Shown: one piece after another, positions 5,322 through 43,208 of the stretch
Layout: every line of letters starts with the position of its first letter
Numbering within the stretch: position 1 is the stretch's first letter
IMG/VR virus record: IMGVR_UViG_3300016665_000824
Coordinates: 32,001-96,000 of that record
DNA from: a virus
DNA length: 64,000 nt
Direction: 5' to 3' (one strand)
Notes under the pieces: generated by a model
Databases searched by the model: none
The model's input: the letters and a program-made list of their open reading frames with translations, nothing else
What the model was told of the DNA's origin: nothing
Program-made: the position numbers and the translations under genes

Positions 5322-5352
5322 GGTAACAAGGACTTGAGTCCTTGTTACCTTA
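5319..5352. terminator. Strong hairpin (15-bp stem, 4-nt loop) spanning the stop codons of two convergent genes
   Basis: TAAGGTAACAAGGAC-TTGA-GTCCTTGTTACCTTA; no flanking U-tract. Confidence 0.45.
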
Positions 5353-14220: not shown

Positions 14221-16428
14221 TTATCCCTTACCGTTACTGGGTTTTGAGGTTGGCTTATAGACATCATAGAGAGAGCCAATCTTCCCATTCTTCTTAGAGG
14301 CGTATAAAATCATAGGATCTTGACCCTCCATAGGGGCGAAGCCAGCCTTTTCGTAAATACTCTTACGCTTACTGCCAGCCCCATCTTTGTCATAAGCCCC
14401 AGCCGTAAGAATAGAGTTGTCGGGCATAGCCTCAATATGCTTGGCAAACGAAGCCTTTGTCATGCGAATAATTTGTTTTGCTCCAGAAGCCCCAAGGTTG
14501 GCGGACTCCTCCTTGTTATTGGATTCGTTTATGGCGAAAGAAACCTCGTAGACACTTCCTCCAGAAGCTTCTTTTTTGTACACAGTCGTAAAGGTGTACA
14601 AGGCTGGTCCAACAGAAGCTACAGTATAAACCCCACCATTCTTTCTATCCCTGTAAGTGAAGCTGTTCGATTCTTTGTCTACGTCAATAAGATCCCGACC
14701 CTTAATAGACTGAGTTTTTCTTGCCAAGGCGAGCTTGGTCATTCCGATAAGACCTTTTGCTTTGTCTTTAAGGGCTGGGCTTAAATCAGATCTATCCAAA
14801 GCCCGATCCGCCACTTTCCCCAAGGCTAAACTCTGCTTGTAGGTCATAATCAGTGCAACATCTGAAATCTTGTAATCTTTTGTCGCTTGAATATTGCCAA
14901 TACCGACGACTCCAGCTACCACTGAACCTACGCTACCTGCGACGATCGCTGCCTTGCGAGCGCCTTTGTTAGAAAGTAGTCCGATAGCCTTGTCTACTGG
15001 TGTCTCCTTTTTTTGTAGGGGCGGCTGAGGTATAGAGAATTCCGTTTTTGGTTGTTGTGACTCGCTTGGATTACCCCCTTTTGTTGACTTGCCTCGGTTT
15101 GCAGCGATCGCCGCCGCACCACCAACTAAGGCAGCAGCACCTAAACCAGTACCAACATTTCGGGCTAAATTATTCTCGCTTTTTTTCTCGCCGATCTTTT
15201 GACAGGCGTTTCCACGCTGGACATAGCCTTCCTTGCATTTGAGCGTTCTACCCTTGTCGTAGCGCAAAGATACCGACATACGCCCCTCAAGATAAGACGA
15301 ATCATTCTGTAGATCGGCATCAGTCCGCCTTGTAGTTGCACTTTGATAGATGTTGCTAAATAGGTAAAGAACTTCGATATCCTCGTCATCCTCAACCGAG
15401 TCTCCCCTCTTCTCATTTATCTGGGATATCTTCTCGTTTGTTTTAGCCTCTACGTTTTCTCTAAAGTCCTTGAGTCCACCCCTCTTTGTTGCGAGGGTGA
15501 GAGCAGTGCCAAGAAGAATGGTGTCTCGCTCAGCTCTTCTTAGAACCTTCTGAAAAGGAGATAAGGTAGATTCATTCTTACCACCCGAAATCGACTTGGA
15601 CACATATTCTCCCGCAATGCGTTGAATTTCAGGATCTTTAGACCACTCGGAAGCTACGGATGAGCCATATTTCAAGGCTGCGCTACGAGCTTTTGGATTG
15701 GTCAGCACCTCTTTTGCGATAACCATAGAGGCTTTTTTCTTTGCTTCAACTAAGTTTGTTTCGTTACTAAATTCAGGAGCGACAAAAGTTCCGACAGCGC
15801 TGGCTACTTCTGGCTTTTCCGCAAGAATACTCAAAATTGCGGTAGCTTTATCTCTGTAAGCAGGATTGTTTAAATCCTTGATGCGCCTTTTAATCAATAC
15901 TTGAGATAAATTGTCTCCCTCACTTTTGATTTCACCTTTCTTCTCTTTTGACAAAAGGTTTGCCACTACAGAGACAGTCTTGTTCACCGCCACCGAAGCC
16001 GCCTTTTTCGTTGCGCCCAATATAATCTGATTCTTTTTCTGAGAGATCGCAGCCCCAGTTACCGCAACAACGGTACTGGCTCCAGCCGCCAAATACCTCT
16101 TCGCCAGAGGAAGTCCTTTCTCCCCTTTTTTGGAGGCAGTAGAACTCGAAAGAAGGGCAACAGGGGCGGGATCTACGGCTCTGTTTTCTTGCGGAGATCT
16201 TCTCGATGCGATCGCCGCCACACCGCCGACTAAAGCCGCAGCCCCTAGCCCTGCGCTAATATTTCGAGCTAAATCACCCCCAGCCTTCTTCTCGCCAATC
16301 TTCTGGCAAGCAGCCCCGCGCTGTACATAACCTTGCTTACACTTAATCTTCTTCCCCGCATCTTGACGTAGAGCGACAGACACCTGCCCCTCAAGATAAG
16401 CTAAGTCACTGGCTAAATCTCTCGTCAT
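14221..16428 (-). CDS. Cys-motif/hydrophobic-helix protein with duplicated anchor module and GNAT-like C-terminus
   Basis: 735 aa; two copies of CK[QE]GYVQRGxAC followed by GLGAAALVGG-type hydrophobic segment; C-terminal GASGAK...IYEKAGF resembles GNAT acetyltransferase motifs. Confidence 0.6.
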   Translation of the reverse strand: MTRDLASDLAYLEGQVSVALRQDAGKKIKCKQGYVQRGAACQKIGEKKAGGDLARNISAGLGAAALVGGVAAIASRRSPQENRAVDPAPVALLSSSTASKKGEKGLPLAKRYLAAGASTVVAVTGAAISQKKNQIILGATKKAASVAVNKTVSVVANLLSKEKKGEIKSEGDNLSQVLIKRRIKDLNNPAYRDKATAILSILAEKPEVASAVGTFVAPEFSNETNLVEAKKKASMVIAKEVLTNPKARSAALKYGSSVASEWSKDPEIQRIAGEYVSKSISGGKNESTLSPFQKVLRRAERDTILLGTALTLATKRGGLKDFRENVEAKTNEKISQINEKRGDSVEDDEDIEVLYLFSNIYQSATTRRTDADLQNDSSYLEGRMSVSLRYDKGRTLKCKEGYVQRGNACQKIGEKKSENNLARNVGTGLGAAALVGGAAAIAANRGKSTKGGNPSESQQPKTEFSIPQPPLQKKETPVDKAIGLLSNKGARKAAIVAGSVGSVVAGVVGIGNIQATKDYKISDVALIMTYKQSLALGKVADRALDRSDLSPALKDKAKGLIGMTKLALARKTQSIKGRDLIDVDKESNSFTYRDRKNGGVYTVASVGPALYTFTTVYKKEASGGSVYEVSFAINESNNKEESANLGASGAKQIIRMTKASFAKHIEAMPDNSILTAGAYDKDGAGSKRKSIYEKAGFAPMEGQDPMILYASKKNGKIGSLYDVYKPTSKPSNGKG

Positions 16429-16763
16429 TTCTTGCTCCGCTTTTTAATCATCTTGCTAATAGCTTCAGCTCCATTAGCCACTTTAGACTCAACCTTGCCC
16501 GTAGCTCGACCCGTGTTAAAGATTGCCTTACCAGTATTAAAATCCTCTTTCAATCCTGTTTTACCTTTATCGGCAAGTTTGGCGATCGCCACAGCAGTCA
16601 GTCCCGCGATCACGCCACGACCAACTGCGCCAGCAACACTCTTAATCGCTGTTTTAAGTTTGCCTTTACCACAAGTAGCGCCTTGAGGGATGCAGTAGGT
16701 TTTACCATCTTCTCCTTGGCAGGGTTTGCCGCGATCGCACGTTGTGTCTAGTCTAATCTTCAT
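16425..16763 (-). CDS. Small Cys-knot/hydrophobic-helix protein
   Basis: 112 aa; CDRGKPCQGEDGKTYCIPQGATCG then Gly/Ala-rich hydrophobic helix; 4-nt overlap with neighbours. Confidence 0.55.
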   Translation of the reverse strand: MKIRLDTTCDRGKPCQGEDGKTYCIPQGATCGKGKLKTAIKSVAGAVGRGVIAGLTAVAIAKLADKGKTGLKEDFNTGKAIFNTGRATGKVESKVANGAEAISKMIKKRSKK

Positions 16764-18468
16764 ACTTATTTTTCACCGCTTTTTCCACCGCAAGTCTGGC
16801 TGCAATACCAATCGCGATCTTAACTATGGGATGAGAACCTTCTGCGTAAGAAGGAGAGGCTTTTTGTAACGCTGCAAATGAAGCTTTCGTGCCTACATAT
16901 TGCGTTGCCGCGTCAGAAAACATCAATAGCGCAGTTTTTTCTGTCTGACCTAACGAGGAGTCGGACAACGTTCTCTCTGTCGCATCACGAGCAACTTTAC
17001 CTCCAAAGGCTCCAACCAAACTAGAACCAATCTCATATCCAAGCATCTTGAGTTTGTCTTTTTCTTGCCTCCCAATCGATTTTAAGGTGACAAAATCGCC
17101 CACTTGCTGGACAAAGTTCTTTTTCGCTTGCGGAGTTTGAATCATGGCTTGGAGGCTTCTGCCTGCGCTTGAATTGCGGAGTTTTCCAATAGAGCGGGTT
17201 AAGCGATCTCCTAGTCCGCCCCTTCCTTTTACTGTGGATAGAATAGCCTCCCCGACCTGCATCCCGTCCCTAGCCTTCTGCCTTAAGTCGTGTTGCTTCC
17301 CCTTAGGGGCATTAGCGATTAGGGCTAGCGTAGTCGCCGAGGCTGCTGCTACCCCTATTGTTGCCAAGGTTCTTGAGGAAATAAAAGGTTTTCTCTTTTC
17401 TGACCCGCAGGTTGCGTTTTTTGGGATACAGTAAGTCTGACCGTCCTCGCCCTTGCACGGCTTTCCGCGATCGCAGGTAGAATCTATTCTATTTTGAATA
17501 GATCTTGTTTTTTTGTAGATGTATCCGCTAGTCCTCCCCGTCTTAGATCTCAAAAAAGAATCTGTTTCTGTACTGATTTTGCGTGCAAACCCCTGATAAT
17601 CCTGAAAACGATCGGTCACAGTTCTGGGTTGCTTGTCCTGCCATTTTTCTGTTAATTGCCTGTTTAGATTGGCGTGAACGTCAGCCAACTCTTTAGCTAG
17701 TGAGCTACTAGGAGAAAATGCCCCCTCTCTTTTAGCCTGTAATACAGAGGTGGTTTCCGCTCCAGTCGCACGAATTTCTTTGATGTTACTAAAAAACGCT
17801 CCTACTTTTAAGTCGGCGGGACTAAAGGCTGACGTATCTCCAACCCCAGCAATATCTGGGTGATTGTGAGTCATCAGTACTGTGTTTTTTGCGGCTTTTT
17901 GATTATACGCATCGGTTATTCCAAGAGAGACCGAGCCTATCTGCCCTTTTCTGATCAGTGAAGGCTTGCCATCCACGTCAAAAGCAAAAAGAGTCTCGAA
18001 ATCATTATGCTGGATCTTTCTTTCTGCCGCGTAAACACTAATTGCAAGTTCTTTGGGGAGGTGGCTATATGCAGGAGCATCTCTTGCGGGAATGCCATTC
18101 TTGGCTACGTCTTCTCGTTCTTTCGCAAACTCCTTATAGGTTTCAACATCATCAAGCTTCTCTCTTATAACCTTATTGGCAATCATGGCTCCCACCCCCA
18201 GCGCTAAAAACTTAGCCGCCGCCTGAGGATCTTTAGAAGCTAATGCGGCTCCTGCCGCTAGTACAGTCAGTTTTGCAAGAGTTCCAGTTCCATCGCCCTT
18301 ACTAGCTGTGGATAGGGAACCAGTTCTAGATATCGGATGACAGGCGGAGCCTCTTTGGACATAACCTTGCCGACAATTGATTTTTTTGTACTCATCCCGC
18401 CTCTCCACATATCGCGATCGCGACAGTAGATACCCCATTTCGTACTCGTTCTTGTTATCTAGTCTCAC
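16753..18468 (-). CDS. Cys-motif/hydrophobic-helix protein with JAB/MPN-like (JAMM) signature
   Basis: 571 aa; N-terminal CRQGYVQRGSAC plus hydrophobic segment; central THNHP...SPAD (aa 200-219) resembles RadC/JAB HxH...SxxD; C-terminal CDRGKPCKGEDGQTYCIPKNATCG plus hydrophobic segment. Confidence 0.55.
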   Translation of the reverse strand: MRLDNKNEYEMGYLLSRSRYVERRDEYKKINCRQGYVQRGSACHPISRTGSLSTASKGDGTGTLAKLTVLAAGAALASKDPQAAAKFLALGVGAMIANKVIREKLDDVETYKEFAKEREDVAKNGIPARDAPAYSHLPKELAISVYAAERKIQHNDFETLFAFDVDGKPSLIRKGQIGSVSLGITDAYNQKAAKNTVLMTHNHPDIAGVGDTSAFSPADLKVGAFFSNIKEIRATGAETTSVLQAKREGAFSPSSSLAKELADVHANLNRQLTEKWQDKQPRTVTDRFQDYQGFARKISTETDSFLRSKTGRTSGYIYKKTRSIQNRIDSTCDRGKPCKGEDGQTYCIPKNATCGSEKRKPFISSRTLATIGVAAASATTLALIANAPKGKQHDLRQKARDGMQVGEAILSTVKGRGGLGDRLTRSIGKLRNSSAGRSLQAMIQTPQAKKNFVQQVGDFVTLKSIGRQEKDKLKMLGYEIGSSLVGAFGGKVARDATERTLSDSSLGQTEKTALLMFSDAATQYVGTKASFAALQKASPSYAEGSHPIVKIAIGIAARLAVEKAVKNKYED

Positions 18469-21083
18469 TGGCTTTGCTTCCTCGCTTTACGGCGTTGAGT
18501 TAATGTTGCATTGAGTTTTTTGGCGATCGCGTCAGCAGCATTTACCGACAGGTAATCCACTGCGCTGCCGTTAGTTCCTGAGAAGCTATCGGGGTTTTTG
18601 CCCTTGAATGGAGTTCGACTCCAGAGATCGCCGTCCGACCACAGATCGGTCTTTGGAGTTTTTAGCAGATCTGTATCTACTTTTTTCTTATCTACCTTCT
18701 CTCCCCCAAAACCCAGCTCAGGAGTTCCCAAAGTAACAAGGTGAATTTGTTTAGCAATATAAGTCCCAGCAACATTTCCTTGCGAACCTGTTTTTTGCAT
18801 TGACTCCAAGATGTCCAAAGCCCTTTTTGCTGTTTCTCCACCTTGCTTTAGCCCAATAACAGAAATAGCTGGGTATTCAGTTGAGCTTCCCTCGTATGAG
18901 CTGTTTCCGATAGCGTAAAGTTCCGCAGCCAACTTTACAGCTTCAGGGTCTCGTCCCGCTTTGAGGGTCTTACTCATCACGGCTTCGTAGCTTCTTGCCA
19001 TAGTGTCAATAACACCCATAACCCTGCCCCTAGACTGAGGCGGGAGGGTTCGATCAAAAGAAACCACGTCGCTTTGATCGTAGAAGTCTTTCTCTGCTTG
19101 AGACTGAAGCTTTGATCCGTTACTTTTAATTGATTTGCCCAGAACATCGCTAGGAGTTTCTCCATCTCCTATTGCGATAATGACGCTGGGATTTATTGGG
19201 GTAGGCAAAGTCGTTCGTCCACTTGCTACAATCTCTTGAGCCTCAAGAGCAGACTTCGCTATATTGTTGTTGTATTTAACCCTCGCAGCCACAGCAGCAG
19301 TCACCGTTACTTGACCAAGTACGGCTACAGTATTAATCGCTGCTGCTGTGGGATTGTCTTGATATTTATCCTTGATCGCAGAAACCAGATTCCACGTCTT
19401 TCCTAGCGTTGGGTTTACCGCAGTGATCGCCGCCGCTATTTCTTTTGCCCCCTTGTCGCTAGACTTGCTTCCCGCAACAGAATTAGAGAAAAATCCAAAC
19501 GTCTCGCGGATTTTATCTCTGACCGTGCTATCGGTTAAGTAGTCCTCAATCTCATGCCCCTTGACCGAGCTGACAAACTGCGAAAACCTCTTAGGCAGGA
19601 TTGAGAAAGGATCGTTTTTGGAGGTAATAGTGCGGTTGTTAATGTTCGCCCAGTTCTTGTCGTCTTGAGTTGTGCCACCCGTCAAACCGAAGGATGCACC
19701 GCCAAGTCTGGCGATATTGAGGCGCTTCAGAACTTCTCCACCATCAAGCCCCCTAGCAGGCTTGATCCGACTCAAAATTTCGGCAGCTTCATCAACAACG
19801 TTGCCCCCAGAACCGTGACTAACTACGTTCAAAGGCTTGTCACGATACTTAGAGCCATAAGCATACAATTTAGAAGCCAGATCCACCGCAGCTTCGTTTC
19901 TGCCACCGACAATATTGCTTAGATATTTGCCAAAACTTTCTTTAGCTACATACCCCAGATACAAGGGATTGTAGTTCCCGTTTTTATCCTTTGGGAGAAT
20001 ATCGGTTGGAGGAACATTAAACTCCGAATTGTTGAAGGGGATGACCTGCTGGGTCTTGTTAAACCACTGTTCCCGTTTTGAAGTGTCAAGCGGAGTTTTT
20101 AAATATTCAGCGAGCTTATCACCAGAAGAGCCAAGGTTGGAAAATCCTCCTACAGCAAAAGTTAGTTGAGGTTTGGAGGTTGGCTCGACAGGAGTAGTTT
20201 GTGCTCTTTGGTACGCCATTAGCGCCGATTCAGGCAAGCCTTCTTTGTAGCGATCGCGAGCGGTCATCATTACCGATGAGGGAATGCCCAGCAGTACGCT
20301 TGCCGCTAATATGCCTGCCGCAGGGCGATTGTCTCCAAAAAACTTGCTAATCTTTTCGATATCTTTCCATGCGCCAGCAACGGGTTGGGGTAGCAAACTC
20401 TTAAGAGCTTTCTTGCTAGACTCTGCGCGATTCAAGCCTTCACGAACAATCTTCTGGCGATCGGGATTGGCTTTTTGCAGGCGAATTGATTCTCGCAATT
20501 GAGCCTGACTCATATACGAGTAGCGATACACGCCTCGTTTGCGAGCTTCTTCCTTTAATTCCCGAATATTCTTGTTATCAAGATCGTCCTCAACTGGGGC
20601 AACGCCAACAAATTTCGCTTTTTGAACTTGGTTTACCGCATCATTCAGATCGGAAATCTCTTGTCTATTTAAAGCTTCAGGAACGTCAATACGGCAGGTG
20701 TCCGTCTTTGCAATACAAGCGCCTTTGCAGGATAGTCCAACCTTACAGTTCTTGGGCTTAGAAATTTTATCGGTACGTTGACCGATATTGTTTGCATAAG
20801 CAAGTAAGTACTGATCTGCGTCAGTATCTACTGCATCAGTGCGACCATCCTGTACCTGCTTATACTCAATGCGATCTCCTAATTCCAGCCGAATCAGCTT
20901 TTGATCCTTGTCATCATCACGAAACAGACAAGTGATAAGCCCGTCATTACCGATATTGATATTAAGGATCTGATCGATACTCCCGTAGGCGCGAGAAATA
21001 ATGCGAGTTAATAGCCTCGCAATCGTTCTTCTTGCGGCGAGAGGATCTGTGGTTTGAATTGGTGGTGGTGCGATCGCGTACAT
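18465..21083 (-). CDS. Large virion/effector-like protein with possible alpha/beta-hydrolase-like region
   Basis: 872 aa; CKVGLSCKGACIAKTDTC motif; VVSHGSGG (aa 421-428), NDPF (aa 490-493), KGHE (aa 508-511) in the order expected of a Ser-Asp-His hydrolase, not canonical GxSxG. Confidence 0.5.
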   Translation of the reverse strand: MYAIAPPPIQTTDPLAARRTIARLLTRIISRAYGSIDQILNINIGNDGLITCLFRDDDKDQKLIRLELGDRIEYKQVQDGRTDAVDTDADQYLLAYANNIGQRTDKISKPKNCKVGLSCKGACIAKTDTCRIDVPEALNRQEISDLNDAVNQVQKAKFVGVAPVEDDLDNKNIRELKEEARKRGVYRYSYMSQAQLRESIRLQKANPDRQKIVREGLNRAESSKKALKSLLPQPVAGAWKDIEKISKFFGDNRPAAGILAASVLLGIPSSVMMTARDRYKEGLPESALMAYQRAQTTPVEPTSKPQLTFAVGGFSNLGSSGDKLAEYLKTPLDTSKREQWFNKTQQVIPFNNSEFNVPPTDILPKDKNGNYNPLYLGYVAKESFGKYLSNIVGGRNEAAVDLASKLYAYGSKYRDKPLNVVSHGSGGNVVDEAAEILSRIKPARGLDGGEVLKRLNIARLGGASFGLTGGTTQDDKNWANINNRTITSKNDPFSILPKRFSQFVSSVKGHEIEDYLTDSTVRDKIRETFGFFSNSVAGSKSSDKGAKEIAAAITAVNPTLGKTWNLVSAIKDKYQDNPTAAAINTVAVLGQVTVTAAVAARVKYNNNIAKSALEAQEIVASGRTTLPTPINPSVIIAIGDGETPSDVLGKSIKSNGSKLQSQAEKDFYDQSDVVSFDRTLPPQSRGRVMGVIDTMARSYEAVMSKTLKAGRDPEAVKLAAELYAIGNSSYEGSSTEYPAISVIGLKQGGETAKRALDILESMQKTGSQGNVAGTYIAKQIHLVTLGTPELGFGGEKVDKKKVDTDLLKTPKTDLWSDGDLWSRTPFKGKNPDSFSGTNGSAVDYLSVNAADAIAKKLNATLTQRRKARKQSQ

Positions 21084-21085
21084 GA

Positions 21086-22492
21086 CTATTTTTTAGCTTG
21101 CTTCTGGTTTTCTTCTTCCGCCTTGTTTATGGCGTGGGCTGCGAGAGCTAGAGATCCAGCAGTTGCCGCAACGTTCGCTCCGATCGCGCCAGCAACAGAT
21201 GCTCCGCGACCATGACCACGCGATCGTAAAGCTCTGTAAGTGCCGCTACCGATCGGCCCAGCCAGCGCCTGTACCGCCCCCTTTCCAAAAGCTTTGGCAG
21301 TCTCCCCAGCACAATTCTTTTCTTGAGGAATACAGATCTTTCCGCAAGGCTTAGTACCTGAACCGCACTTTGCGTCTTCACGAAGCTGCTCGACGAATGA
21401 GTCGATGCGCTCATCTAAGGATTCGTATCGACGACTTGTTTTATTCCACACTCTATTTGTAGTCATATTCGCTCTTCTAATTCGTTTTGGCATCTCCCTC
21501 CGAGTTGTTTTAACCTCAGATGCTTTTACGTCTACCGTATTATTCTTGTCAACAAAAGTCTGCATAAAACTTCTAGCGAAATTGTCTACGGCGTTAAGAG
21601 TTGATCGGGTGGTAGATCCCGCCTTTTTTGCCGCCTCGTTTAGGTCGATAGTTTTGTCGGCAAGATTCTTCCTCGCGACGCGATCGCGTTCTAGCCTTTC
21701 TTTTGTTTTTCGATACAACTTACCCGCCGCCGCACCTGCGGAACCAGCAGCTCTTGTTAATAGTGGCTTCTGAGGTTCGGCGATCGCACTACCACTACTC
21801 TTGCCCGATTCACTCGCAGCAATAGTTAATCCACCAGTAGATACCTTGGAAGCAGGAGGGTTGTATGGCAGTCGAGTTGGAGGTGGGGGTGTAGGAGTTT
21901 CAGGTTTATTGACGGGGACTAGTGCTCCACCGATTTCTGGCTTGGGCTTGGGTGATGGAAGGCGATCGGGCGGGGCTAGCCTCCTGCTTTCTATCTCGCC
22001 TTGCCGAGCTGCTTCTCGCTCAAGATCTTTCTTAGCCTTATATCGAAAATACTCCTCTTCTGCCGCAGCTTCCTCTGCTCTCCACCGCGCCCTCCGAGTT
22101 TCGCTATCCTTTTCGCCAGCCTTGTTTGCGCCCTTCTCGATAATGGGGCGAAGACCTACGGTGATGGCTTTATTCGCAATTACACCTGCGCCGAGTGATG
22201 CGGCAGTTCCACCGACCTTGATCGCCGCTTTCTTAGCAAACTCACCAACCTTATTGGGAGGTGACTGAGGAAGTATAGAAGCAGGCTCCGTCACAGGGAT
22301 AGGCTTCTGTTCTTCTGGCTTCTTCCTTAGCGCGATCGCTGCTGCCCCCAACCCACCCAAGGCAAGTGCAGCGCCAACACCCGCAGCCCCTTTCTTTGCT
22401 GCACTGGCATTGCGGAAGTATGAATAAGCCTTACGTCCATTTTGCGCTGGGACTTTAACTTCTACCTGTGCGTCCTGTCTTTCAGTACTCAT
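21086..22492 (-). CDS. Low-complexity basic/Pro-rich protein with Cys-knot motif and Gly/Ala-rich hydrophobic segments
   Basis: 468 aa; CGSGTKPCGKICIPQEKNCAG near C-terminus; several GAAGVGAALALGG-type segments. Confidence 0.5.
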   Translation of the reverse strand: MSTERQDAQVEVKVPAQNGRKAYSYFRNASAAKKGAAGVGAALALGGLGAAAIALRKKPEEQKPIPVTEPASILPQSPPNKVGEFAKKAAIKVGGTAASLGAGVIANKAITVGLRPIIEKGANKAGEKDSETRRARWRAEEAAAEEEYFRYKAKKDLEREAARQGEIESRRLAPPDRLPSPKPKPEIGGALVPVNKPETPTPPPPTRLPYNPPASKVSTGGLTIAASESGKSSGSAIAEPQKPLLTRAAGSAGAAAGKLYRKTKERLERDRVARKNLADKTIDLNEAAKKAGSTTRSTLNAVDNFARSFMQTFVDKNNTVDVKASEVKTTRREMPKRIRRANMTTNRVWNKTSRRYESLDERIDSFVEQLREDAKCGSGTKPCGKICIPQEKNCAGETAKAFGKGAVQALAGPIGSGTYRALRSRGHGRGASVAGAIGANVAATAGSLALAAHAINKAEEENQKQAKK

Positions 22493-24528: not shown

Positions 24529-25440
24529 TTACAATCCGTGCAACCAGAGTACGGAGTAGGGACGCTTGATAATCAAGCCGCCGTACTTCATACGGGCGGT
24601 GCGCTGCATCCCACGAGGAAGCTCAATCCACTTCTTGAAGGAGAAAGGCTCGGTAATGCGGAACTTGATTTTGTTCGGATCGCGCTTGTAGTAACAAGCA
24701 ACGTTAGAACCGCCATCACCAACACCTTCGAGAGGGAGTAAGGGGAAGTAATCCTTAATGTAAGTTGCCTTACTCAAGTAGTAATCAAGAACAGAATCAC
24801 TGTTGAAGTCACTGAGACGACGGAAGCTGATTTCATCGTGAGTTGCCTGAGCAAACAAGATCGTGTCAGGGGTCTCAATATTGCGGGTCAAACGACGCAT
24901 GGCGTTGCCAGTGTTGTTCAATACCGCAAGAAGCTGAGCTACCGTAGCATTGCTGTCAAAAGCGTATGCAGAGTAGGACTTCAAAGTATCAGGATGGTTG
25001 AAGAAACCGCGCAATTGACCGTCACCCAAGAACACCATCTTGTCGAGGTATTGTTGACCTGCTTCAAGCACGATCTGGACTTTTTCCGCCTCAATGCCAG
25101 TACCAAACTTTTGAGAAAGTTCGATTTCTTTGTCATTAAGGGTATAAGCACCAATATGCTCAGAAACTCTTTGGCGGAATTCTCTCGACACGATCTCGAC
25201 GTTAGGAACGTGAGTGGTGTAGTCGCGAGCAGCTTCCCACCGACCGATACCAGTTACCTTGCGATAGCCAGTTTCTTCGAGTTCAGGTTTGTTCCAATCT
25301 TCGCGAGGAAGGAGAGTGCCGTTAGCCCAGTAAAGCTGTTCGTACTCTTCTTTTTCGAGAGACTGTTCTAGTTCGACGAGCTGCTCTTTGAAGTAGCCCA
25401 CCGACCAATCATCATTCTTAATTTCAGTAGCTGTGGTCAT
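24529..25440 (-). CDS. Putative major capsid protein
   Basis: Start reassigned to ATG 25440 (MTTATEIKND), preceded by AGGAGG; track start 25728 runs through upstream gene; ~303 aa, downstream of protease/scaffold-like gene. Confidence 0.45.
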   Translation of the reverse strand: MTTATEIKNDDWSVGYFKEQLVELEQSLEKEEYEQLYWANGTLLPREDWNKPELEETGYRKVTGIGRWEAARDYTTHVPNVEIVSREFRQRVSEHIGAYTLNDKEIELSQKFGTGIEAEKVQIVLEAGQQYLDKMVFLGDGQLRGFFNHPDTLKSYSAYAFDSNATVAQLLAVLNNTGNAMRRLTRNIETPDTILFAQATHDEISFRRLSDFNSDSVLDYYLSKATYIKDYFPLLPLEGVGDGGSNVACYYKRDPNKIKFRITEPFSFKKWIELPRGMQRTARMKYGGLIIKRPYSVLWLHGL

Positions 25441-25450
25441 TGGACTCCTC

Positions 25451-26323
25451 CTAGAAGTTCGCGTAAACTTTGACAACCCTGTTGTTGTTGATGTCGATAA
25501 CAACATCGGAGCGGAAACTGGCGCGGGTCGAAGCGTCGATCGCGCTGTTCGCATTGGTCTTTTGGGCATAACCCTTAGAGCCAGCAGCAACAGAGATATA
25601 AACGGTGTCGGACTCGGCGATACTGGTTTCCAAAGTAGGAACCCAAATACCAGAGAGATCACCCAATCGTCGTTGAACATCAACCGCCAACTGGTTAGCT
25701 TCGTATCCAGCAGTCGCCGCTTCGCCAACCACGTCTTTTTGAACGGAGGTGTTTAGGCGGGTGATGCCGCAGATAGCGGAGATTGCGTCACCACTGTTAG
25801 GAAGGCGAATGCTGCCACCATTGAGAGTTCCAGTCACACGAGGAGTTGTGCCTGCGACCTTGGTGACAAACAATCCAAAGCCAATGCGAGATGGGGCTGC
25901 GGCTGCGGTAGTTGGAGTGGTAGGCACGGTTAAAGGTGCTGCACCGCCACCACTGACGCTCACAAACATCGGGGTATTATCCTTGCGATGAGTGAAGACC
26001 AAAGTTGAGGTGTTATTTACCACCGAGGCAATCTGGCTGGCGCGAAGGTTAGCGCGGAACGCTGCGTACAAGCCTGCGGCAAGGTCGGCGCGAACAGTTG
26101 AAGCGGTGGTAAAAGAGAAGGTGATTGGGTTATCGGAGGTATCAGCATCATAGATAGTGATGCTGTACACAGTGGCTGTAACGGGAGTTGCAGGAGTTGT
26201 AACCGTCCAAACTTCCTTAACGTAGCCACTGTCATTGTGATAGGCTTCAACAGAGCCAACACCCATGCCCTCAACCATTCCAGCGAGAGCCTGTGTGTAA
26301 TACTGGCGATAATTCTTTTGCAT
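25451..26323 (-). CDS. Ala/Thr-rich head structural protein (decoration or capsid-associated)
   Basis: 290-aa ORF between scaffold-like and capsid-like genes. Confidence 0.4.
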   Translation of the reverse strand: MQKNYRQYYTQALAGMVEGMGVGSVEAYHNDSGYVKEVWTVTTPATPVTATVYSITIYDADTSDNPITFSFTTASTVRADLAAGLYAAFRANLRASQIASVVNNTSTLVFTHRKDNTPMFVSVSGGGAAPLTVPTTPTTAAAAPSRIGFGLFVTKVAGTTPRVTGTLNGGSIRLPNSGDAISAICGITRLNTSVQKDVVGEAATAGYEANQLAVDVQRRLGDLSGIWVPTLETSIAESDTVYISVAAGSKGYAQKTNANSAIDASTRASFRSDVVIDINNNRVVKVYANF

Positions 26324-33109: not shown

Positions 33110-33812
33110 TGACTTTCGCCTTGATTTGCTTCTTGACTTGAGTTCTCAGGTCTGGGGATAGTCGCTTCAGTCCCTGATTCAATATTTGCTGAGTTGTCTT
33201 CGCGTCTGTACCGCGACGAAAGTTGACACCCATGATCGTGTCGGGATCTGGTGGGTTTTCCAAGATTTCAATACCATTTCGCTCGCAGTAAGCGCGAGAC
33301 ACAGCGATCGCAGTACACTTGCAATTCCAATCACATGGAAATCCTATTCGCCTCCAGAAAGGAGAGGCTGCGGGAATCCCTTTATTGTGTAAAGCCTTAT
33401 GTGCTGGACGAGGCACTACCGAGTCGCGATGTCTCCATACCCATATATCGAGTTTCGCCATCACTTCAGGACTCCGCATCACCTTCTCCCTACCCTGCCA
33501 ATAAGACTTGTTGATATTCGTATCAAAAATCAACTTAATCTTCTGACCATTCGGCTGATATCCTGCGCGACCGATACGACGGTTAAAGCTACGAGTAAAT
33601 TGCTCGAAGGACGTGCCATCTTCAAGGGCTTTACCGATTAACCACTTAGTTGCTTCAAGTAAATCTGCTCGCATTAATCCAGATACCATAAAAGCGTGGT
33701 CGTGGATACGGGCATCTAAACCTTTGTAGTCGGATATAGGTAGAGCTAACCGATCGCGTAAGGCTGCGATCGCATCAACAGGTTTTAACTTCAAATACTC
33801 AGGGGTTGCCAC
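33102..33812 (-). CDS. Phage head morphogenesis protein, Mu F-like / SPP1 gp7 family
   Basis: 236 aa; WVWRHRDSVVPRPAHKALHNKG matches Mu F-like signature. Confidence 0.65.
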   Translation of the reverse strand: MATPEYLKLKPVDAIAALRDRLALPISDYKGLDARIHDHAFMVSGLMRADLLEATKWLIGKALEDGTSFEQFTRSFNRRIGRAGYQPNGQKIKLIFDTNINKSYWQGREKVMRSPEVMAKLDIWVWRHRDSVVPRPAHKALHNKGIPAASPFWRRIGFPCDWNCKCTAIAVSRAYCERNGIEILENPPDPDTIMGVNFRRGTDAKTTQQILNQGLKRLSPDLRTQVKKQIKAKVNG

Positions 33813-36394
33813 TAGCTCACCCTCCGAAACTTGTCGCGGGTTTCCCAGTAGGCTGCGAGGTAGACTTCCGATGTGGCGATCGCGTCGTTATTGAGTTGAC
33901 TGTCAATGAAGTCGCGTCCCTCCTTCTGCTTTTTCTGGATTTGCTCTTGTTGATAGGCGATCGCTTTTTGTAGTTTTGAGATCTGCTTCTCAGGGGTTAG
34001 TGTTCCAAATCCAGTTATATCTATCCCCATATTGGTTAGTGCTGTTTGAGATGCAGCTAGCGGCTTCTTCCCTGACTGAATTCGAGCAAGGGTCGCCTCT
34101 AAGGTCTTAGTGGTTGCCTCCATCTTGCTGATGTTGTTTTGAAGCGTTTTCAAGTCTATAGGCGGAGTAGCAGTCTTTGATTCAGTACTTGCAGCAGTAT
34201 CCACTGATTTATTTTTACGCGATCGTTTTTGGGTTGCGGTAGTACTGGTTGCAGTACTTACTGATTTACTGCTAGGCGATCGCGTAGAACTTTTTGAAAG
34301 GGGTGGCGCGGCGGAAGACTTAGCTCCGTAGTTTTCGGGATATCGGGCTTTGTTTTCTTGCACCAGTGATTCGTAGTAATCGGCGAATCCGTCTGCCGCT
34401 TCTTTTGCCTGTTCAAGGGAAAAGAAGCGGGTTTTATCTCTGTTCCTACCGCTAAACATATCGGCTAAATCTTCAGGTTCGTGCTCTTCGGTATAAACCA
34501 TCCACCCATCATCTTCTTTTTGGATGGAAATAAAGAGTGATGCGTCTTTGTCTGAAGCCTTTTTTCTTGCGTTGGAGCTGTATCTGTCAGCAGAGTCTGG
34601 ATCTTTAACCCACTCTCCAGCAATAACCTTGTCCAGCTTTTTATTGTATGTTTCTCGTGCTTTCTGTCTTCTCTCTGCGGCTTTCTGTTTTTTGGCAAAC
34701 TCTGCCAGTGTTTTTTCGGCGCTAGATACTAAACTGTTGGACTGACTTGAAGTCAAGTTGTCGGGTTTGCTGCTAGGCGATCGCTCTTGAGGGGTTTCGG
34801 GTTCTGCTTTAGGTGGTTTCGGAGCAACATACTTTTTACCAATCATCGCCTCATGCAGCAGCATTAATTCCTTGGCTTCAGAAGTATCAACACCTAGTGT
34901 CTCGATATCCCTAGCAATGACGGAGGCAAGCTTAGACTTTTGTTCTGGGGTAGCCTTGTCCGCAAACACCTCCTGATCCGACTGAGGAAACTTCTTGGTG
35001 TTTCTCAGCTCGTAAGCCGCATTTATGTTTGCTATCCCATCAACAGCCTTGGAAATCCTAACAGCTTCTTCCTGTGCTATTTCTTTCTTGCTTTTAGGTT
35101 TGACTGGAACATTCGCCTCCTGAGCGATCGCCGCTACTGGCTGGATAACTTCTTCAGTTTTTGGTTTTACCGCCCTGCTGCGACTCTTCTTAGGCTCGCC
35201 CTCTACGGGGTTTTTGGTTGATCTTTCTGTGTTAGGAGTCTCGTCTACCTGAGTTTTTGGAGGCTTAGCCGCTTTCTCTGTCGATCGAGACTTCGCCCGT
35301 GGGTTCTTGATGTTCTCGGCGATCGCCTCTTGAATCTTGTCTTGATTACGAGTAAACCGCATCTCGCCTACACGAATAACTCCTTTCCCATCCCTAAGAT
35401 CGATAGAGTATTGATTTGCACTCTCGGCAAGAGGAGTTCCTTTTTTCTTGTCAATGGCTCCACGAAACTGGATAGAGTCCTCAAGTCCATGTTCTTTAAG
35501 CTTGTCGTATAGTCGCTGCAAATCGACAGACTGTTTTTCGCGAGCAACCTTGTTTACAATACCGTTTCCTGCGCGAGCCTTTACGTCGTCGATACGGACA
35601 TATCCCTCATCATCAGCTAACTCAAGGTTCTGCTTCTTCCTCTCGATCTCTTCTGGGAGGAGTTGCTTACGTTTCAGTTCCGCAGCTAGAGCTAGTTCAT
35701 ACCCCCTCTTTTGGGCGGGGTAATTAACCGAAACTAGCTCCTTCAGGGCTTGAATCTTGGGTTGCTCAGCTTCGTATGCGGACTGGGCTTCTGGAGTTCT
35801 AACCTCTTGAGTCTTCTGCGGTTTTGTTACAGGAGTAGACTCAACCTGTTCAACTATGGGTTCAACCTCTTTAATATCTGTGTTTGCGGGTGGAGTTGAC
35901 TTGTTTGCGATCGCCGCACCAACACCCAATCCAACAGTCGCAGCCGCACCAACACCTACCGCAACATTTCTTGAAGTATTAGAGGGCGGAAGAGTTGGTC
36001 TCTGCCTAACGGGTTCCTGATAAGGTTCACTAGAACGCCCTGCGTTCACCACTGCGCCAGTCAAGGCTAGTCCGCCAACAGCTAATCCCGCACCGATCGC
36101 CGCTTTACTAAGAAAGCCCATCTCAGATTTTGGTGGTTCCTGCGATCGCGCCAATGCTCGCTCTAATTTTGATGGTGGTAGTACATTTACGCCCTGTCCT
36201 TGTGGAGCTTTCCGATAATAAAAACCACCCCTAACACGTCTATCCTGAACGCAAACATAACCTGCCCGTGGAGCGCAAGCATCGTAGCGCAACTTAACTT
36301 CTAGAGCCGCATCAATATACTCTTGAGGCATTACATCAAGAGTAATTTCGTCTAGATACAGACCAGCAAGGTAGTTCTTATCGAGATCTGGCAT
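33812..36394 (-). CDS. Large virion protein with N-terminal Cys-motif/hydrophobic module
   Basis: 860 aa; CAPRAGYVCVQDRRVRGG motif then AAIGAGLAVGGLALTGAVV and NVAVGVGAAATVGLGVGAAIA segments; Pro/Lys-rich low-complexity remainder. Confidence 0.55.
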   Translation of the reverse strand: MPDLDKNYLAGLYLDEITLDVMPQEYIDAALEVKLRYDACAPRAGYVCVQDRRVRGGFYYRKAPQGQGVNVLPPSKLERALARSQEPPKSEMGFLSKAAIGAGLAVGGLALTGAVVNAGRSSEPYQEPVRQRPTLPPSNTSRNVAVGVGAAATVGLGVGAAIANKSTPPANTDIKEVEPIVEQVESTPVTKPQKTQEVRTPEAQSAYEAEQPKIQALKELVSVNYPAQKRGYELALAAELKRKQLLPEEIERKKQNLELADDEGYVRIDDVKARAGNGIVNKVAREKQSVDLQRLYDKLKEHGLEDSIQFRGAIDKKKGTPLAESANQYSIDLRDGKGVIRVGEMRFTRNQDKIQEAIAENIKNPRAKSRSTEKAAKPPKTQVDETPNTERSTKNPVEGEPKKSRSRAVKPKTEEVIQPVAAIAQEANVPVKPKSKKEIAQEEAVRISKAVDGIANINAAYELRNTKKFPQSDQEVFADKATPEQKSKLASVIARDIETLGVDTSEAKELMLLHEAMIGKKYVAPKPPKAEPETPQERSPSSKPDNLTSSQSNSLVSSAEKTLAEFAKKQKAAERRQKARETYNKKLDKVIAGEWVKDPDSADRYSSNARKKASDKDASLFISIQKEDDGWMVYTEEHEPEDLADMFSGRNRDKTRFFSLEQAKEAADGFADYYESLVQENKARYPENYGAKSSAAPPLSKSSTRSPSSKSVSTATSTTATQKRSRKNKSVDTAASTESKTATPPIDLKTLQNNISKMEATTKTLEATLARIQSGKKPLAASQTALTNMGIDITGFGTLTPEKQISKLQKAIAYQQEQIQKKQKEGRDFIDSQLNNDAIATSEVYLAAYWETRDKFRRVS

Positions 36395-36953
36395 AATGTC
36401 TTTTCACTTCTAGATAGGCGGCTTGGTACTCAAGGGGTTTGGTTGAGTCAACTCGTTTAGATTTTGCGAGTGGTTTCTTATAGTTCGGAGCCTTGTCTTG
36501 ACCACCACAAGCGCATTGAGCTTTAGTCAACCCTTTCTTCTTGCAGTCCGAACATCCGCATTTATCGTTCATACCCATAGAATCCACCTTGTATTTATTA
36601 CTGCCGTTAGCAGGAAGGCTCTTTGACCACAAATCTTTCCTTGCCCAATGATTGGGACTAAACACGTCGTTTGCTGTGGACTGCCCTGATTTGTTTTTAA
36701 TCCCCGCCGATCGCGCTAAGTAGCTCTTCTTCGCCTCGGCGCTGTAGTTGTTCTGATATCCAGTTGCGCCATAGTGGACAACCTTGATGCGATCGCCTTT
36801 TTTCACGAGTACAGCCCGTTTCTTGCCTGGTCGCCATGACTTGATGGGTTTGTTAAAAGCGGGAAAGGTATGCCCAGCATAGTTAATACCGCCACCTTCC
36901 TTCTTGAGGCAGCGCTTGCCTGCCGAGATATATCCTTTGCCGCATTGAGCCAT
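36378..36953 (-). CDS. Cys-rich basic protein
   Basis: 191 aa; CGKGYISAGKRC motif; C-terminal CGCSDC...CACGG cluster; near-palindrome directly upstream of ATG. Confidence 0.5.
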   Translation of the reverse strand: MAQCGKGYISAGKRCLKKEGGGINYAGHTFPAFNKPIKSWRPGKKRAVLVKKGDRIKVVHYGATGYQNNYSAEAKKSYLARSAGIKNKSGQSTANDVFSPNHWARKDLWSKSLPANGSNKYKVDSMGMNDKCGCSDCKKKGLTKAQCACGGQDKAPNYKKPLAKSKRVDSTKPLEYQAAYLEVKRHYARSR

Positions 36954-37039
36954 GATTTAGATCTGAATACGTTGTCCGATAATAAGCGATCGCCAATTCA
37001 GCTTCATTTAAAATCTCCGAAGGCGCGATCGCTAAGATT

Positions 37040-41552: not shown

Positions 41553-43208
41553 TTATTTGAGTCGTCCCTCAACCCACATCTTAGCAAAGGGAGAGTCCAA
41601 ATCCTTAAACAACCGAGAAGCAATTTCTACAGCCGAAACGGAATCCTGTTTAACACCTTCTTCGGGAGGTGTATCTGCTTGACCCTGATCTGCACCTTGA
41701 TCGCCAAAGTAGTCGCCACCTTGATCGCCGCCATATCCCTGTAGAGCTGCAAGCTCTTGTTGCTGCTTGGCTAATTCTTCATCCTGCTTCAGTTTTTCCC
41801 ACGCTTCCTTATCGAGAGAGACCTCATAGGAGTACTCTGTTCCACCGTAGAGGCTAGCGCGAACTTCATCCTTAGTAATTGCTCCCGACTGGGTTTGCAG
41901 AGCGATAAGCATATTAGTGTGAGCAGTTTGGTTGGCTACTTCATCTTTGCGACTCTCTACATAGAGGGGTTTAAACTTATAAGACCATCCTTCAGGGATC
42001 TTACCCTTCGTAGGGCCATCTTGAGCGAGCCAAATATACTTGTAAAGCATATCCAACTTGCGGTGGCGATAATTCTGCTCTTGATAGGCAGCAACGGTCT
42101 TTGACCAAACCTGATCTTCGGTTTCTCCAGTACCACCTGCCGCTAACCCTTTTGGTCCACGCCCAAAGATCATTGTGTAAGGAATCCCCACCGCAGCAAC
42201 CAAATCTTCTTGAAAGCTCGCTTTCATGTCGGACAAGCCTTGGTAGTTCCGCACTAGATAAGTAAGGTCATCTTCCGAGTCTACCGACACCGCCCCCAGC
42301 TTCCGCATCTGCATCTTCATGGCGCGAAACTGTTCTGAAAGAATGGTTAAAGCTTTTGGCACTCCATTGGTAGTGGCAGCTCCACCAGCAGCTTTTTCTT
42401 GGGCAAGATTTTGTTTGATCAGGTTTTGCAGGTTCTTCATCTTGTGGAGAAGAATCGTGTGATCTTGAATCATCTCCGCCATTGCGTCGGAGACTTTTGT
42501 GTAGCGAGCAATTTCTTTGAGTGCTGAGACGATTAGCGGATCGCCCCATCCACCCGTCGATCGCAACAATCTTGGAGGTAATCGAGAACCATCAAATCGA
42601 ATAATCCGCGATTTGTGAATTAAGTTGAACGAGGTGTAGTTTGAGCCTAACTTATCTATCTTGGATTTCGATTCTTGGGAGTAAAAGACCTGATAAAAGT
42701 CGGGGTCATCAGAGGGTGCATCAAGGTTTGGGAAATACGGGCGGATATCCTGCGGGTCAAGCTCGTAGATACCCTTGATGGTTTTAATTTTTGCCGTGTT
42801 AACTGGCTCGTTTGGGGGTAGCCCATCATCGATATTGACGAGAATAGCTGCGCCGCCATAAATATTCGCTAGCCAGTCAGCCTTATTAAATTTGTATTTC
42901 GCTTCTATCCTTTCTTCGTACTGTTCAAAGGCTGTGGCAATCTTGCGATCAGTGTCCTTAACTAAGCTAATCTCAGTCCATTTTCTTGTTGCCTCGTCAG
43001 GAAACACCGAGACAATTTTCTTTCCTAGCCAGTCCCTAGATAGTTCTTCGAGGGCTTTGTAGCTTAGTCTGCGCCGATCGCCTGTGCTATTCATCCCCAG
43101 ATCATTCTGAGCGAGCAGGTTGTTGTTGTACTCAGCCTCATAGAGCGCATCGATAATGGCTCCGTCTTGTCTCACATAGACTTCGGGATAATCTGTTTCT
43201 TTGGACAT
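41553..43208 (-). CDS. Putative portal protein
   Basis: 551 aa; no Walker A, so not terminase large subunit; Gly/Asp-rich acidic C-terminal tail; AVGIPYTMIFGRG segment; structured 5' leader. Confidence 0.45.
   Translation of the reverse strand: MSKETDYPEVYVRQDGAIIDALYEAEYNNNLLAQNDLGMNSTGDRRRLSYKALEELSRDWLGKKIVSVFPDEATRKWTEISLVKDTDRKIATAFEQYEERIEAKYKFNKADWLANIYGGAAILVNIDDGLPPNEPVNTAKIKTIKGIYELDPQDIRPYFPNLDAPSDDPDFYQVFYSQESKSKIDKLGSNYTSFNLIHKSRIIRFDGSRLPPRLLRSTGGWGDPLIVSALKEIARYTKVSDAMAEMIQDHTILLHKMKNLQNLIKQNLAQEKAAGGAATTNGVPKALTILSEQFRAMKMQMRKLGAVSVDSEDDLTYLVRNYQGLSDMKASFQEDLVAAVGIPYTMIFGRGPKGLAAGGTGETEDQVWSKTVAAYQEQNYRHRKLDMLYKYIWLAQDGPTKGKIPEGWSYKFKPLYVESRKDEVANQTAHTNMLIALQTQSGAITKDEVRASLYGGTEYSYEVSLDKEAWEKLKQDEELAKQQQELAALQGYGGDQGGDYFGDQGADQGQADTPPEEGVKQDSVSAVEIASRLFKDLDSPFAKMWVEGRLK

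Follow-up and report, generated by a model that had tools for sequence, protein, structure and literature searches.

A candidate cargo gene beside the MuF-like head gene of a cyanophage genome segment and its relation to split portal-MuF proteins

Introduction

Which protein does a phage encode directly upstream of its MuF-like minor head protein, and what might it do there? The question is raised by a 64,000-nucleotide (nt) stretch of viral DNA (IMG/VR record IMGVR_UViG_3300016665_000824, positions 32,001 to 96,000; the whole stretch is called the window below), in which a gene for an 860-amino-acid (aa) protein precedes the MuF-like gene and is itself preceded by a gene for a 191-aa protein. 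An earlier note on this DNA had described the 860-aa product as an anchored, low-complexity protein in the place of the portal, and had assigned it and the 191-aa protein to an anchor family that recurs in another virion gene block. The two open reading frames (ORFs), their coordinates, their place directly upstream of the MuF gene and the strings quoted from them were all correct. The interpretation has changed in several respects. We propose that the 860-aa product is a virion-packaged, membrane-inserting cargo protein located in the slot of a fissioned portal-MuF fusion, and give this reading a probability of roughly one half.

Results

A portal-MuF protein probably divided over separate genes

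Contrary to the suggestion of the earlier note, the 860-aa protein has not replaced the portal: a gene that matches Phage_portal_3 (E=1.5e-57) is present at 41553-43208. The 191-aa, 860-aa, 236-aa (MuF-like) and 145-aa ORFs follow each other on the minus strand, read from right to left. We compared these proteins with PHROG_220, a 1338-position profile labelled 'minor head protein and DNA pilot', and found it matched in consecutive segments by the products of separate genes: positions 52-501 by the portal, 512-631 by the 191-aa protein (E=2e-31) and 896-1116 by the MuF-like protein. The 860-aa ORF had no PHROG match and hence none to the middle of this profile (631-896).

A single chain of this kind is encoded by the Aphanizomenon phage vB_AphaS-CL131 (CL131), whose gp012 of 1393 aa contains portal, 191-like core and MuF. 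The window portal is 30% identical to aa 52-516 of gp012, the 191-aa core 52% to aa 512-622 and the MuF-like protein 41% to aa 940-1168. The 860-aa ORF, for which BLAST gave no match to gp012, sits where the CL131-type fusion has its variable middle. In purified CL131 virions gp012 was detected with 42.6% coverage (PMC6293099). On the best-supported reading of these alignments, a portal-MuF 'polyvalent' head protein has undergone fission, and its post-portal part is now encoded by the 191-aa, 860-aa and MuF genes.

The 191-aa and 860-aa ORFs overlap by 17 nt, as they do in relatives, and the GTG start of the 236-aa MuF gene overlaps the 860-aa stop codon by 1 nt, with a GGAGG located 9 nt upstream. 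A programmed frameshift that would join the 191-aa, 860-aa and MuF products was set aside. The overlaps are short, and separate initiation is favoured because a start of its own is available to each gene, GGAGG-GTG to MuF and an ATG to the 860-aa ORF. Both the 191-aa and the 860-aa gene are kept, together with their synteny, in about a dozen metagenomic cyanophages. The order that recurs in metagenomic relatives is portal, a 139-aa gene, an opposite-strand cassette, a 190-aa gene, the 860-like gene, sometimes an extra ORF, MuF and Phage_tail_S.

Anatomy and conservation of the 860-aa protein

The 860-aa family is small, with 12 homologues of the protein among 5.8 billion proteins. A tblastn search of 50,697 phage genomes gave no match. 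The gene does not come from a known prophage, because no relative of its N-terminus was found in 185,579 species genomes. Searches of Pfam, PHROGs, NCBIfam and PDB sequences, and of the PDB with Foldseek, gave no match either, and none of them pointed to a portal or scaffold protein.

Within the family there is hardly any variation over the N-terminal 130 aa, a stretch that contains C40, C48 and the first of two Gly/Ala-rich helices (helix 1), with invariant columns from L95 to S122. The strings singled out by the earlier note are found at aa 40-57 (CAPRAGYVCVQDRRVRGG), 98-116 (AAIGAGLAVGGLALTGAVV) and 143-163 (NVAVGVGAAATVGLGVGAAIA); the protein does contain CAPRAGYVCVQDRRVRGG but does not begin with it. 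Small residues form a ladder in both helices, which we read from the sequence as A99xxxG103xxxG107 in helix 1 and G147/A151/G155/G159 in helix 2. The rest of the protein is variable and carries large insertions, up to the C-terminal 25 aa, which are again conserved (NNDAIA.SE.YL.AY.E.R.KYRR).

The description as low-complexity was borne out: K, E, P, S, T, A and Q together make up 59% of aa 166-860, and the confidence score of the AlphaFold2 (AF2) model, the predicted local distance difference test (pLDDT), is below 50 for 404 of the 860 residues. The protein is basic, with an isoelectric point (pI) of 9.2, and Lys-rich. Two orphan domains were modelled confidently, at aa ~200-370 and 745-835. 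Cargo is swapped between family members, some of which carry a HeH/SAP-like motif, while the relatives P0063 and P0073 have a zincin-like HExxH end. In one related locus (L002, 10001-13362) the 860-like gene is split, with an 862-aa ORF that is devoid of the conserved C-terminus and a following 260-aa ORF that ends with it.

The type-B unit

The part of the 860-aa protein that contains C40 and C48 is a small unit that we call type B. Its pattern is RxD, then GY-x-[C/W]-V-x-D-x-RV-x-GG-x-Y-x-RK, followed by the two Gly/Ala-rich helices; a broader form, RxD...G[YHF]x[WC]VxDxRVxGGxYxR[KR], was tested as well. Homology of this unit was found in both directions, which supports the proposed role. 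A profile of the 860-aa N-terminus retrieved 19 proteins from 1.84 billion representatives, among them P0072 (E=7e-11) and full-length relatives at a greater distance in which the Cys pair is retained. In reverse, a hidden Markov model (HMM) built only from the repeats of P0072, P0073 and P0075 had the 860-aa ORF as its sole match in the window (E=3.6e-8) and matched all relatives in related loci.

These three proteins show the unit in different settings. P0072 (1975 aa) contains five repeats of the form R[VT]DS.D.AP.G[HY].WV.D.RV.GG.YLRK, four of which directly precede a Gly/Ala helix, as well as two Cys4 units and LRAT domains. P0075 (1853 aa) combines two type-B repeats with Cys4 units, LRAT and DnaJ. 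P0073 has the same N-terminus without Cys (…RAGQHWVEDRRVNGGGYWRR), a Cys2 loop, CGEGWMSQGEEC, further on and the zincin end. In the alignment a Gly/Ala helix follows the type-B unit in all three. In its phage (L049) the P0072 gene is flanked by the Mu G-like gene on one side and the DUF2213/capsid genes on the other, and the MuF protein of the same phage carries a type-B-like motif (E=0.002) between its MuF domain and a PI3/PI4-kinase-like segment. C40 and C48 of the 860-aa unit correspond to x and W in distant copies and are retained or lost as a pair. Judged from these alignments, the N-terminal unit is a separate 'type B' unit, and its cysteines do not define the family.

A further protein search with the type-B alignment returned one fragment only. 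The J-domain of P0075 (aa 461-507, E=2e-14) suggests a cargo directed at host chaperones. Another protein, P0074 (769 aa), consists of a 12-fold near-perfect tandem repeat (WQRSAGAAAGGRLYVRATVVF...); its match to the 860-aa N-terminal profile (E=4e-4) is probably a repeat-driven false positive.

The 191-aa protein

Elsewhere the core of the 191-aa protein (aa 16-110) occurs as a stand-alone protein of ~100 aa that ends in ...SANHWARKDLW (34 viral contigs). No portal or MuF gene adjoining these stand-alone genes was detectable by BLAST. The core is DUF5754-like (PF19058). With 15.4 bits the copy in the window stays below the cutoff of 27.4, which its homologues P0037 (52 bits) and P0044 (44 bits) pass. 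An N-terminal loop, a Cys cluster and a C-terminal helix (...EYQAAYLE.KR.YAR.R) were added to the core in this lineage only. The loop, with the consensus CGKG[YHF]IS[AV]GK[RH]C, is kept in 13 cluster representatives, and the Cys cluster, with variation, in 11 close ones. The homologue P0025 has an RxD prefix, ...YGDRIDSAGKRC, before the loop. D-x-C-x-C strings like that of the Cys cluster follow the portal domain in CL131 gp012 and in the L049 portal. The AF2 model has an overall pLDDT of 76, and a fold search with it found no similar solved structure. For both ORFs, the 191-aa and the 860-aa one, the respective units are conserved in the homologues.

Cys units in a second virion block

A second block of virion genes encodes proteins with related small units. 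We defined the Cys2 loop from the 735- and 571-aa proteins of this block as C-x2-G-[YWF]-[VI]-x2-G-x2-C. A search of the six-frame translation for C..GY[VI]..G..C gave four matches, of which the 735-aa ORF has two and the 571-aa and 191-aa ORFs one each, as compared to no occurrence in 200 shuffles. The claim that the same module recurs next to the MuF gene thus holds for the 191-aa loop. It does not hold for the helix that should follow, as the 191-aa protein has no hydrophobic segment and no Gly/Ala helix within ~60 aa after the loop, nor for the 860-aa unit, which is of type B and whose loop, CAPRAGYVC, has another spacing and does not fit the Cys2 pattern. In the case of the 860-aa ORF, the combination of RxD and a GY-containing Cys loop was observed 4 times against 0.29 expected.

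The earlier note had proposed to search the window with an HMM of the module. Two such models, one for the 735/571 module and the other for 15 Cys junctions, matched neither the 860-aa nor the 191-aa ORF at E<=10-50, with the Gly/Ala helix of the 860-aa protein as the lone exception (domain E=0.04). An hhalign comparison of the 860-aa unit with the Cys module aligned only the pre-helix stretches YIDAALEVKLRYDAC and YLEGQVSVALRQDAG (P=0.02).

What recurs is an arrangement of elements. Both in the window block (14.2-22.5 kb) and in CL131 gp044-gp048 an RxD-ended helix leads to a small unit and this to a Gly/Ala-rich helix. The Cys4 type of unit has the pattern C-x5-6-C-G-x2-C-I-P-x4-C. Cargo segments with esterase-like GxSxG or JAB-like HxHP...SxxD motifs come after the units; the unit-bearing proteins themselves had no match in Pfam, PHROGs or NCBIfam. 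The second block has the same position as the CL131 gp044-gp048 block. Its 872-aa protein aligns to gp048 with 25.6% identity, gp048 being the only match among isolate phages. In gp048 five or six units are found in one 1811-aa chain, and proteins of the gp048 kind, with lengths of 1456 and 1749 aa, are also encoded in two Nostoc genomes. Like gp012, the CL131 proteins gp044-gp049 were all found in purified virions using liquid chromatography-tandem mass spectrometry (PMC6293099, Table S5). Of the proposed anchor family in two virion blocks, the architecture of a small unit plus a hydrophobic helix remains in both blocks, and the single module does not. As far as the sequences tell, the shared element of the blocks is a grammar and not one module.

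Some further observations concern the units and their cargo. At the level of motifs, the 571-aa protein (16753-18468, minus strand) reads as JAB/MPN-like (THNHP...SPAD), like CL131 gp044, and the 872-aa protein (18465-21083, minus strand) as esterase-like (SHGSGG). Units are shuffled between close relatives, as seen by comparing L006 (4222-11116) with the window block: the L006 counterpart of the 735-aa protein, which has two Cys2 units, is 371 aa long with one unit, and the leader of the L006 JAB-like protein is of the GRKAYSYFR type rather than the Cys2 type. The Cys4 string CKxGKPCGDxCIPK ends 213-aa stop-to-stop ORFs in L051 (3374-3415) and L053 (986-1027), which come from a Caulobacteraceae and an 'Enterobacteriaceae' metagenome-assembled genome. 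One such ORF finishes in ...GGCACGG, like the CACGG of the 191-aa Cys cluster. Possibly the Cys4 knot represents a small domain of wider occurrence.

Layout of the locus

The window is a segment of a phage genome with genes for portal, DUF2213, cement-like, major capsid, DUF4054 and tape-measure-like (2811 aa) proteins as well as for DnaG, DnaB and Dam. The coordinates of the features discussed here are collected in Table 1. The cyanobacterial HIP1 octamer GCGATCGC is present in 139 copies in the whole window, compared to ~0.7 expected from base composition, an abundance that is a strong host-like signature for a phage genome. Copies begin for instance at 36986, 37025 and 37055, and three are counted in the 86-bp gap upstream of the 191-aa gene.

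Table 1. Features of the MuF region and of the second virion block (window coordinates).
Feature	Position	Strand	Evidence or remark
Mu G-like virion morphogenesis protein, 145 aa	32672..33109	-	PF05069 (Phage_tail_S), E=7.5e-32
MuF-like minor head protein, 236 aa	33102..33812	-	PF04233 Phage_Mu_F, 36.2 bits vs gathering cutoff 29.6
860-aa gene: conserved N-terminal unit and variable, largely disordered candidate cargo region	33812..36394	-	
860-aa C-terminal tail NNDAIATSEVYLAAYWETRDKFRRVS, aa 836-860, nearly invariant	33815..33889	-	homologue alignment
860-aa orphan domain, aa ~200-370, confidently modelled	35285..35797	-	pLDDT 76-91; kept in most homologues
860-aa Gly/Ala-rich helix 2, aa 143-164, weakly conserved	35903..35968	-	Kyte-Doolittle 1.97; Hessa sum +2.2 kcal/mol
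860-aa Gly/Ala-rich helix 1, aa 95-118, nearly invariant	36041..36112	-	Kyte-Doolittle 1.93; Hessa sum +1.7 kcal/mol
860-aa type-B junction unit RYDACAPRAGYVCVQDRRVRGGFYYRK, aa 36-62	36209..36289	-	HMM and alignment
191-aa gene: Cys2 loop, DUF5754-like core, Cys cluster, C-terminal YL helix	36378..36953	-	ORF; 49 homologue clusters
191-aa C-terminal tail (…EYQAAYLEVKRHYARSR)	36381..36461	-	helix 174-190 in AF2 model
191-aa C-terminal Cys cluster CGCSDCKKKGLTKAQCAC, aa 132-149 (CGCSDC...CACGG; five Cys)	36507..36560	-	low model confidence
191-aa DUF5754-like core, aa 16-127	36573..36908	-	pLDDT 83-94
191-aa Cys2 loop CGKGYISAGKRC, aa 4-15	36909..36944	-	AF2: beta-hairpin packed on core sheet
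Opposite-strand variable cassette, ORFs of 517, 301, 126 and 181 aa	37040..40444	+	splits portal from 191-aa gene
Portal gene	41553..43208	-	PF06381 Phage_portal_3, E=1.5e-57; PHROG_146; PHROG_220 positions 52-501
Second virion block: 468-, 872-, 571-, 112- and 735-aa proteins with Cys4, Cys2 or GRKAYSYFR units and a Gly/Ala-rich helix after each	14221..22492	-	

Between the portal and the 191-aa gene lie two small minus-strand ORFs and the four-gene plus-strand cassette, whose 301-aa ORF is tail-fibre-like in the PHROG search. The gene content of the cassette is wholly different in relatives, where it has up to 12 genes (L002 2552-9334; L004 2328-9336, the latter including an EAL-domain gene). 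It has the look of a hypervariable island that keeps its place in the genome. A promoter and terminator scan of 32.5-37.3 kb gave nothing above shuffle level.

Elsewhere in the window, the longest-ORF call of the major capsid gene (24529-25728, minus strand, 399 aa) shares 278 nt with the 290-aa cement-like gene upstream of it. Since the capsid gene of a relative encodes 315 aa, the gene probably begins near 25470 in reality. The 2811-aa ORF (5345-13780, minus strand) is weakly tape-measure-like (PHROG_305, E=3e-4), which would imply a very long tail if it is the tape measure; it contains zero cysteines and many Gly/Ala-rich hydrophobic stretches at aa 790-1160.

Discussion

A possible role for the 860-aa protein

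The 860-aa protein is composed of four segments: a conserved leader at the N-terminus, in which two YL-type helices lead up to RxD; a type-B beta-hairpin of small size, in this lineage with a Cys pair; a pair of Gly/Ala-rich helices that are marginally hydrophobic and spaced in a glycine-zipper-like way; and a long, variable, basic and mostly disordered region with orphan domains, which relatives exchange for HeH DNA-binding or zincin-peptidase domains. In the mechanism that we propose, translational coupling would lead to co-production with MuF, and a few copies of the protein would be packaged in the capsid near portal and MuF. At infection it would exit with the DNA. The Gly/Ala helices would then insert or oligomerise in the host membrane and put the cargo at the entry site, much as a pilot or ejection protein might do. 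On this reading one grammar (RxD, mini-hairpin, Gly/Ala helix) is common to the type-B, Cys2 and Cys4 units and marks the starts of cargo segments in virion proteins of this phage group; the units may also be signals for packaging or processing. The anatomy, conservation and synteny of the protein, the homology of the units, the CL131 fusion and the presence of the CL131 proteins in virions are observed; that the 860-aa protein itself is packaged, ejected and inserted into a membrane, and that C40 and C48 form a disulfide, is inferred.

A number of findings weigh against this role. The summed Hessa energies of the Gly/Ala helices are +1.3 to +3.0 kcal/mol, despite Kyte-Doolittle values of 1.9-2.0 over 19-22 aa, and both helices of the 860-aa protein appear as low-confidence coil in the AF2 model. 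The anchor function is therefore putative; with these values, insertion under certain conditions or a bundling of the helices is a better fit than an anchor of the classical kind. The confident domains of the model had no fold match in the PDB. So far the 860-aa family is undetected in virions, and CL131, whose virion proteins are known from mass spectrometry, has no 860 homologue. Finally, the link between type-B and Cys units rests on the shared grammar and on co-occurrence, the profile-profile similarity being weak (P=0.02).

A more tentative extension of the cargo role is that RxD-ended helix, mini-hairpin and glycine-zipper helix form an undescribed set of interchangeable junction cassettes that target cargo to the virion, make it a membrane effector on ejection and set the points of cutting or splitting. 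The 191-aa, 860-aa and MuF proteins would then be a portal-MuF polyvalent protein that breaks at its cassettes. This idea concerns a clade of cyanobacterial siphoviruses, in which the mini-hairpins fall by sequence into three or four types (Cys4, Cys2, type B, GRKAYSYFR).

The 860-aa protein could instead stay unpackaged in the infected cell, as an assembly platform for heads that is anchored in the cell or thylakoid membrane, or with a function in superinfection exclusion or lysis. Two hydrophobic helices ~25 aa apart would make a hairpin anchor, and the protein is large, basic and disordered, with no family member seen in virions. For insertion by the translocon the helices are, however, only marginally hydrophobic. 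The gene is moreover part of the head-gene string and coupled to MuF, related unit-bearing proteins of CL131 are in virions, and type-B units are fused after MuF and within a head-block polyprotein, such that we consider a purely intracellular protein unlikely. We are similarly doubtful of a purely structural function, in which the Gly/Ala helices would be glycine-zipper oligomerisation elements and the 860-aa protein an inner-body or DNA-organising protein that shares the capsid/tail lumen with the 2811-aa tape-measure-like protein. The near-invariance of helix 1, including its small-residue ladder, suggests specific helix packing, and the positive summed Hessa energy, the basic, Lys-rich composition, the HeH DNA-binding motif of some members and the location of the second block directly upstream of the tape-measure-like gene are in line with it. 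Delivery is the better fit for the cargo of relatives (LRAT/NlpC-like, zincin, esterase-like, JAB-like, DnaJ, kinase-like), though an inner-core function and the cargo role are not mutually exclusive.

The RxD-hairpin units might also be mainly sites for a maturation protease, either the prohead protease or a zincin domain, such that the resemblance of the blocks would reflect common processing sites. In polyproteins they are found where cargo segments meet, and in split genes at the N-terminus, YL-helix/RD-like tails close the 191- and 860-aa proteins, and zincin domains occur in family members. For polyvalent proteins cleavage by their own peptidases has been proposed (PMC5512222). Processing as the main function leaves unexplained why a Gly/Ala helix nearly always comes next, and we regard it as improbable, the least likely of these alternatives; as an additional function it is compatible with the cargo role.

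If the cargo role is true, the units would make it possible to tell from sequence which proteins without annotation ride in the particle of CL131/PaV-LD-like cyanophages, which infect bloom-forming Nostocales. They also suggest a possible route by which esterase-like, LRAT/NlpC-like, JAB-like, zincin, kinase-like and DnaJ cargo is delivered to, or positioned at, the host membrane. A portal-MuF polyvalent protein would here be caught split, with breaks at recognisable units, and questions of packaging signals and polyprotein processing therefore become testable. The analysis also corrects the tempting misreading that the portal had been replaced.

Comparison with known systems

The 860-aa protein can be compared with the ejection proteins T7 gp14/15/16 and P22 gp7/16/20 and with the T5 tape measure Pb2, which are carried in the virion, have hydrophobic segments and enzyme domains that act on the envelope, and leave with the DNA. 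The analogy would be functional, without similarity in sequence or fold. Literature searches on glycine zippers in phage ejection, on DUF5754 and on these units gave nothing relevant.

MuF-anchored polymorphic toxins of temperate phages were reportedly described by Jamet et al. in 2017; a summary is also given in PMC5512222. As in these toxins, variable cargo is tied to MuF, and in L049 MuF, type-B-like motif and kinase-like C-terminus are combined in one chain. Unlike in the toxins, the cargo gene of the window is separate and upstream of MuF, and neither a toxin domain nor an immunity gene was identified.

Fusions of portal and MuF, and cargo linked to MuF, were already known (Iyer et al. 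2017, PMC5512222). The words 'cysteine' and 'transmembrane' are absent from the main text of that paper, and RxD-hairpin-Gly/Ala-helix units are apparently undescribed there. The order of portal, DUF5754-like segment, variable middle and MuF is the one of polyvalent proteins, PHROG_220 and CL131 gp012. The variable cargo slot adjoins MuF as in polyvalent proteins, relatives carry zincin, HeH and kinase-like cargo, and packaging is of the portal-terminase type. In contrast to the fusions, the chain of the window is distributed over at least 4 genes, with the portal cut off by an inverted cassette. A polyvalent protein is characterised by at least two effector domains within a single polypeptide, in a virion-gene context. 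The window has this context; unlike in polyvalent proteins, the 860-aa cargo has no known effector domain but only orphan domains, while P0072 and P0075 carry LRAT and DnaJ.

The grammar (RxD, hairpin unit, Gly/Ala helix, cargo) is shared with CL131 gp044-gp048 and with the 468-, 872-, 571-, 112- and 735-aa proteins of the window. The 191-aa loop has a Cys2 pattern identical to that of the second-block proteins, but without the helix. The 860-aa unit differs in being of type B and is missed by Cys-junction HMMs; type-B and Cys4 units co-occur within the same chains in P0072 and P0075.

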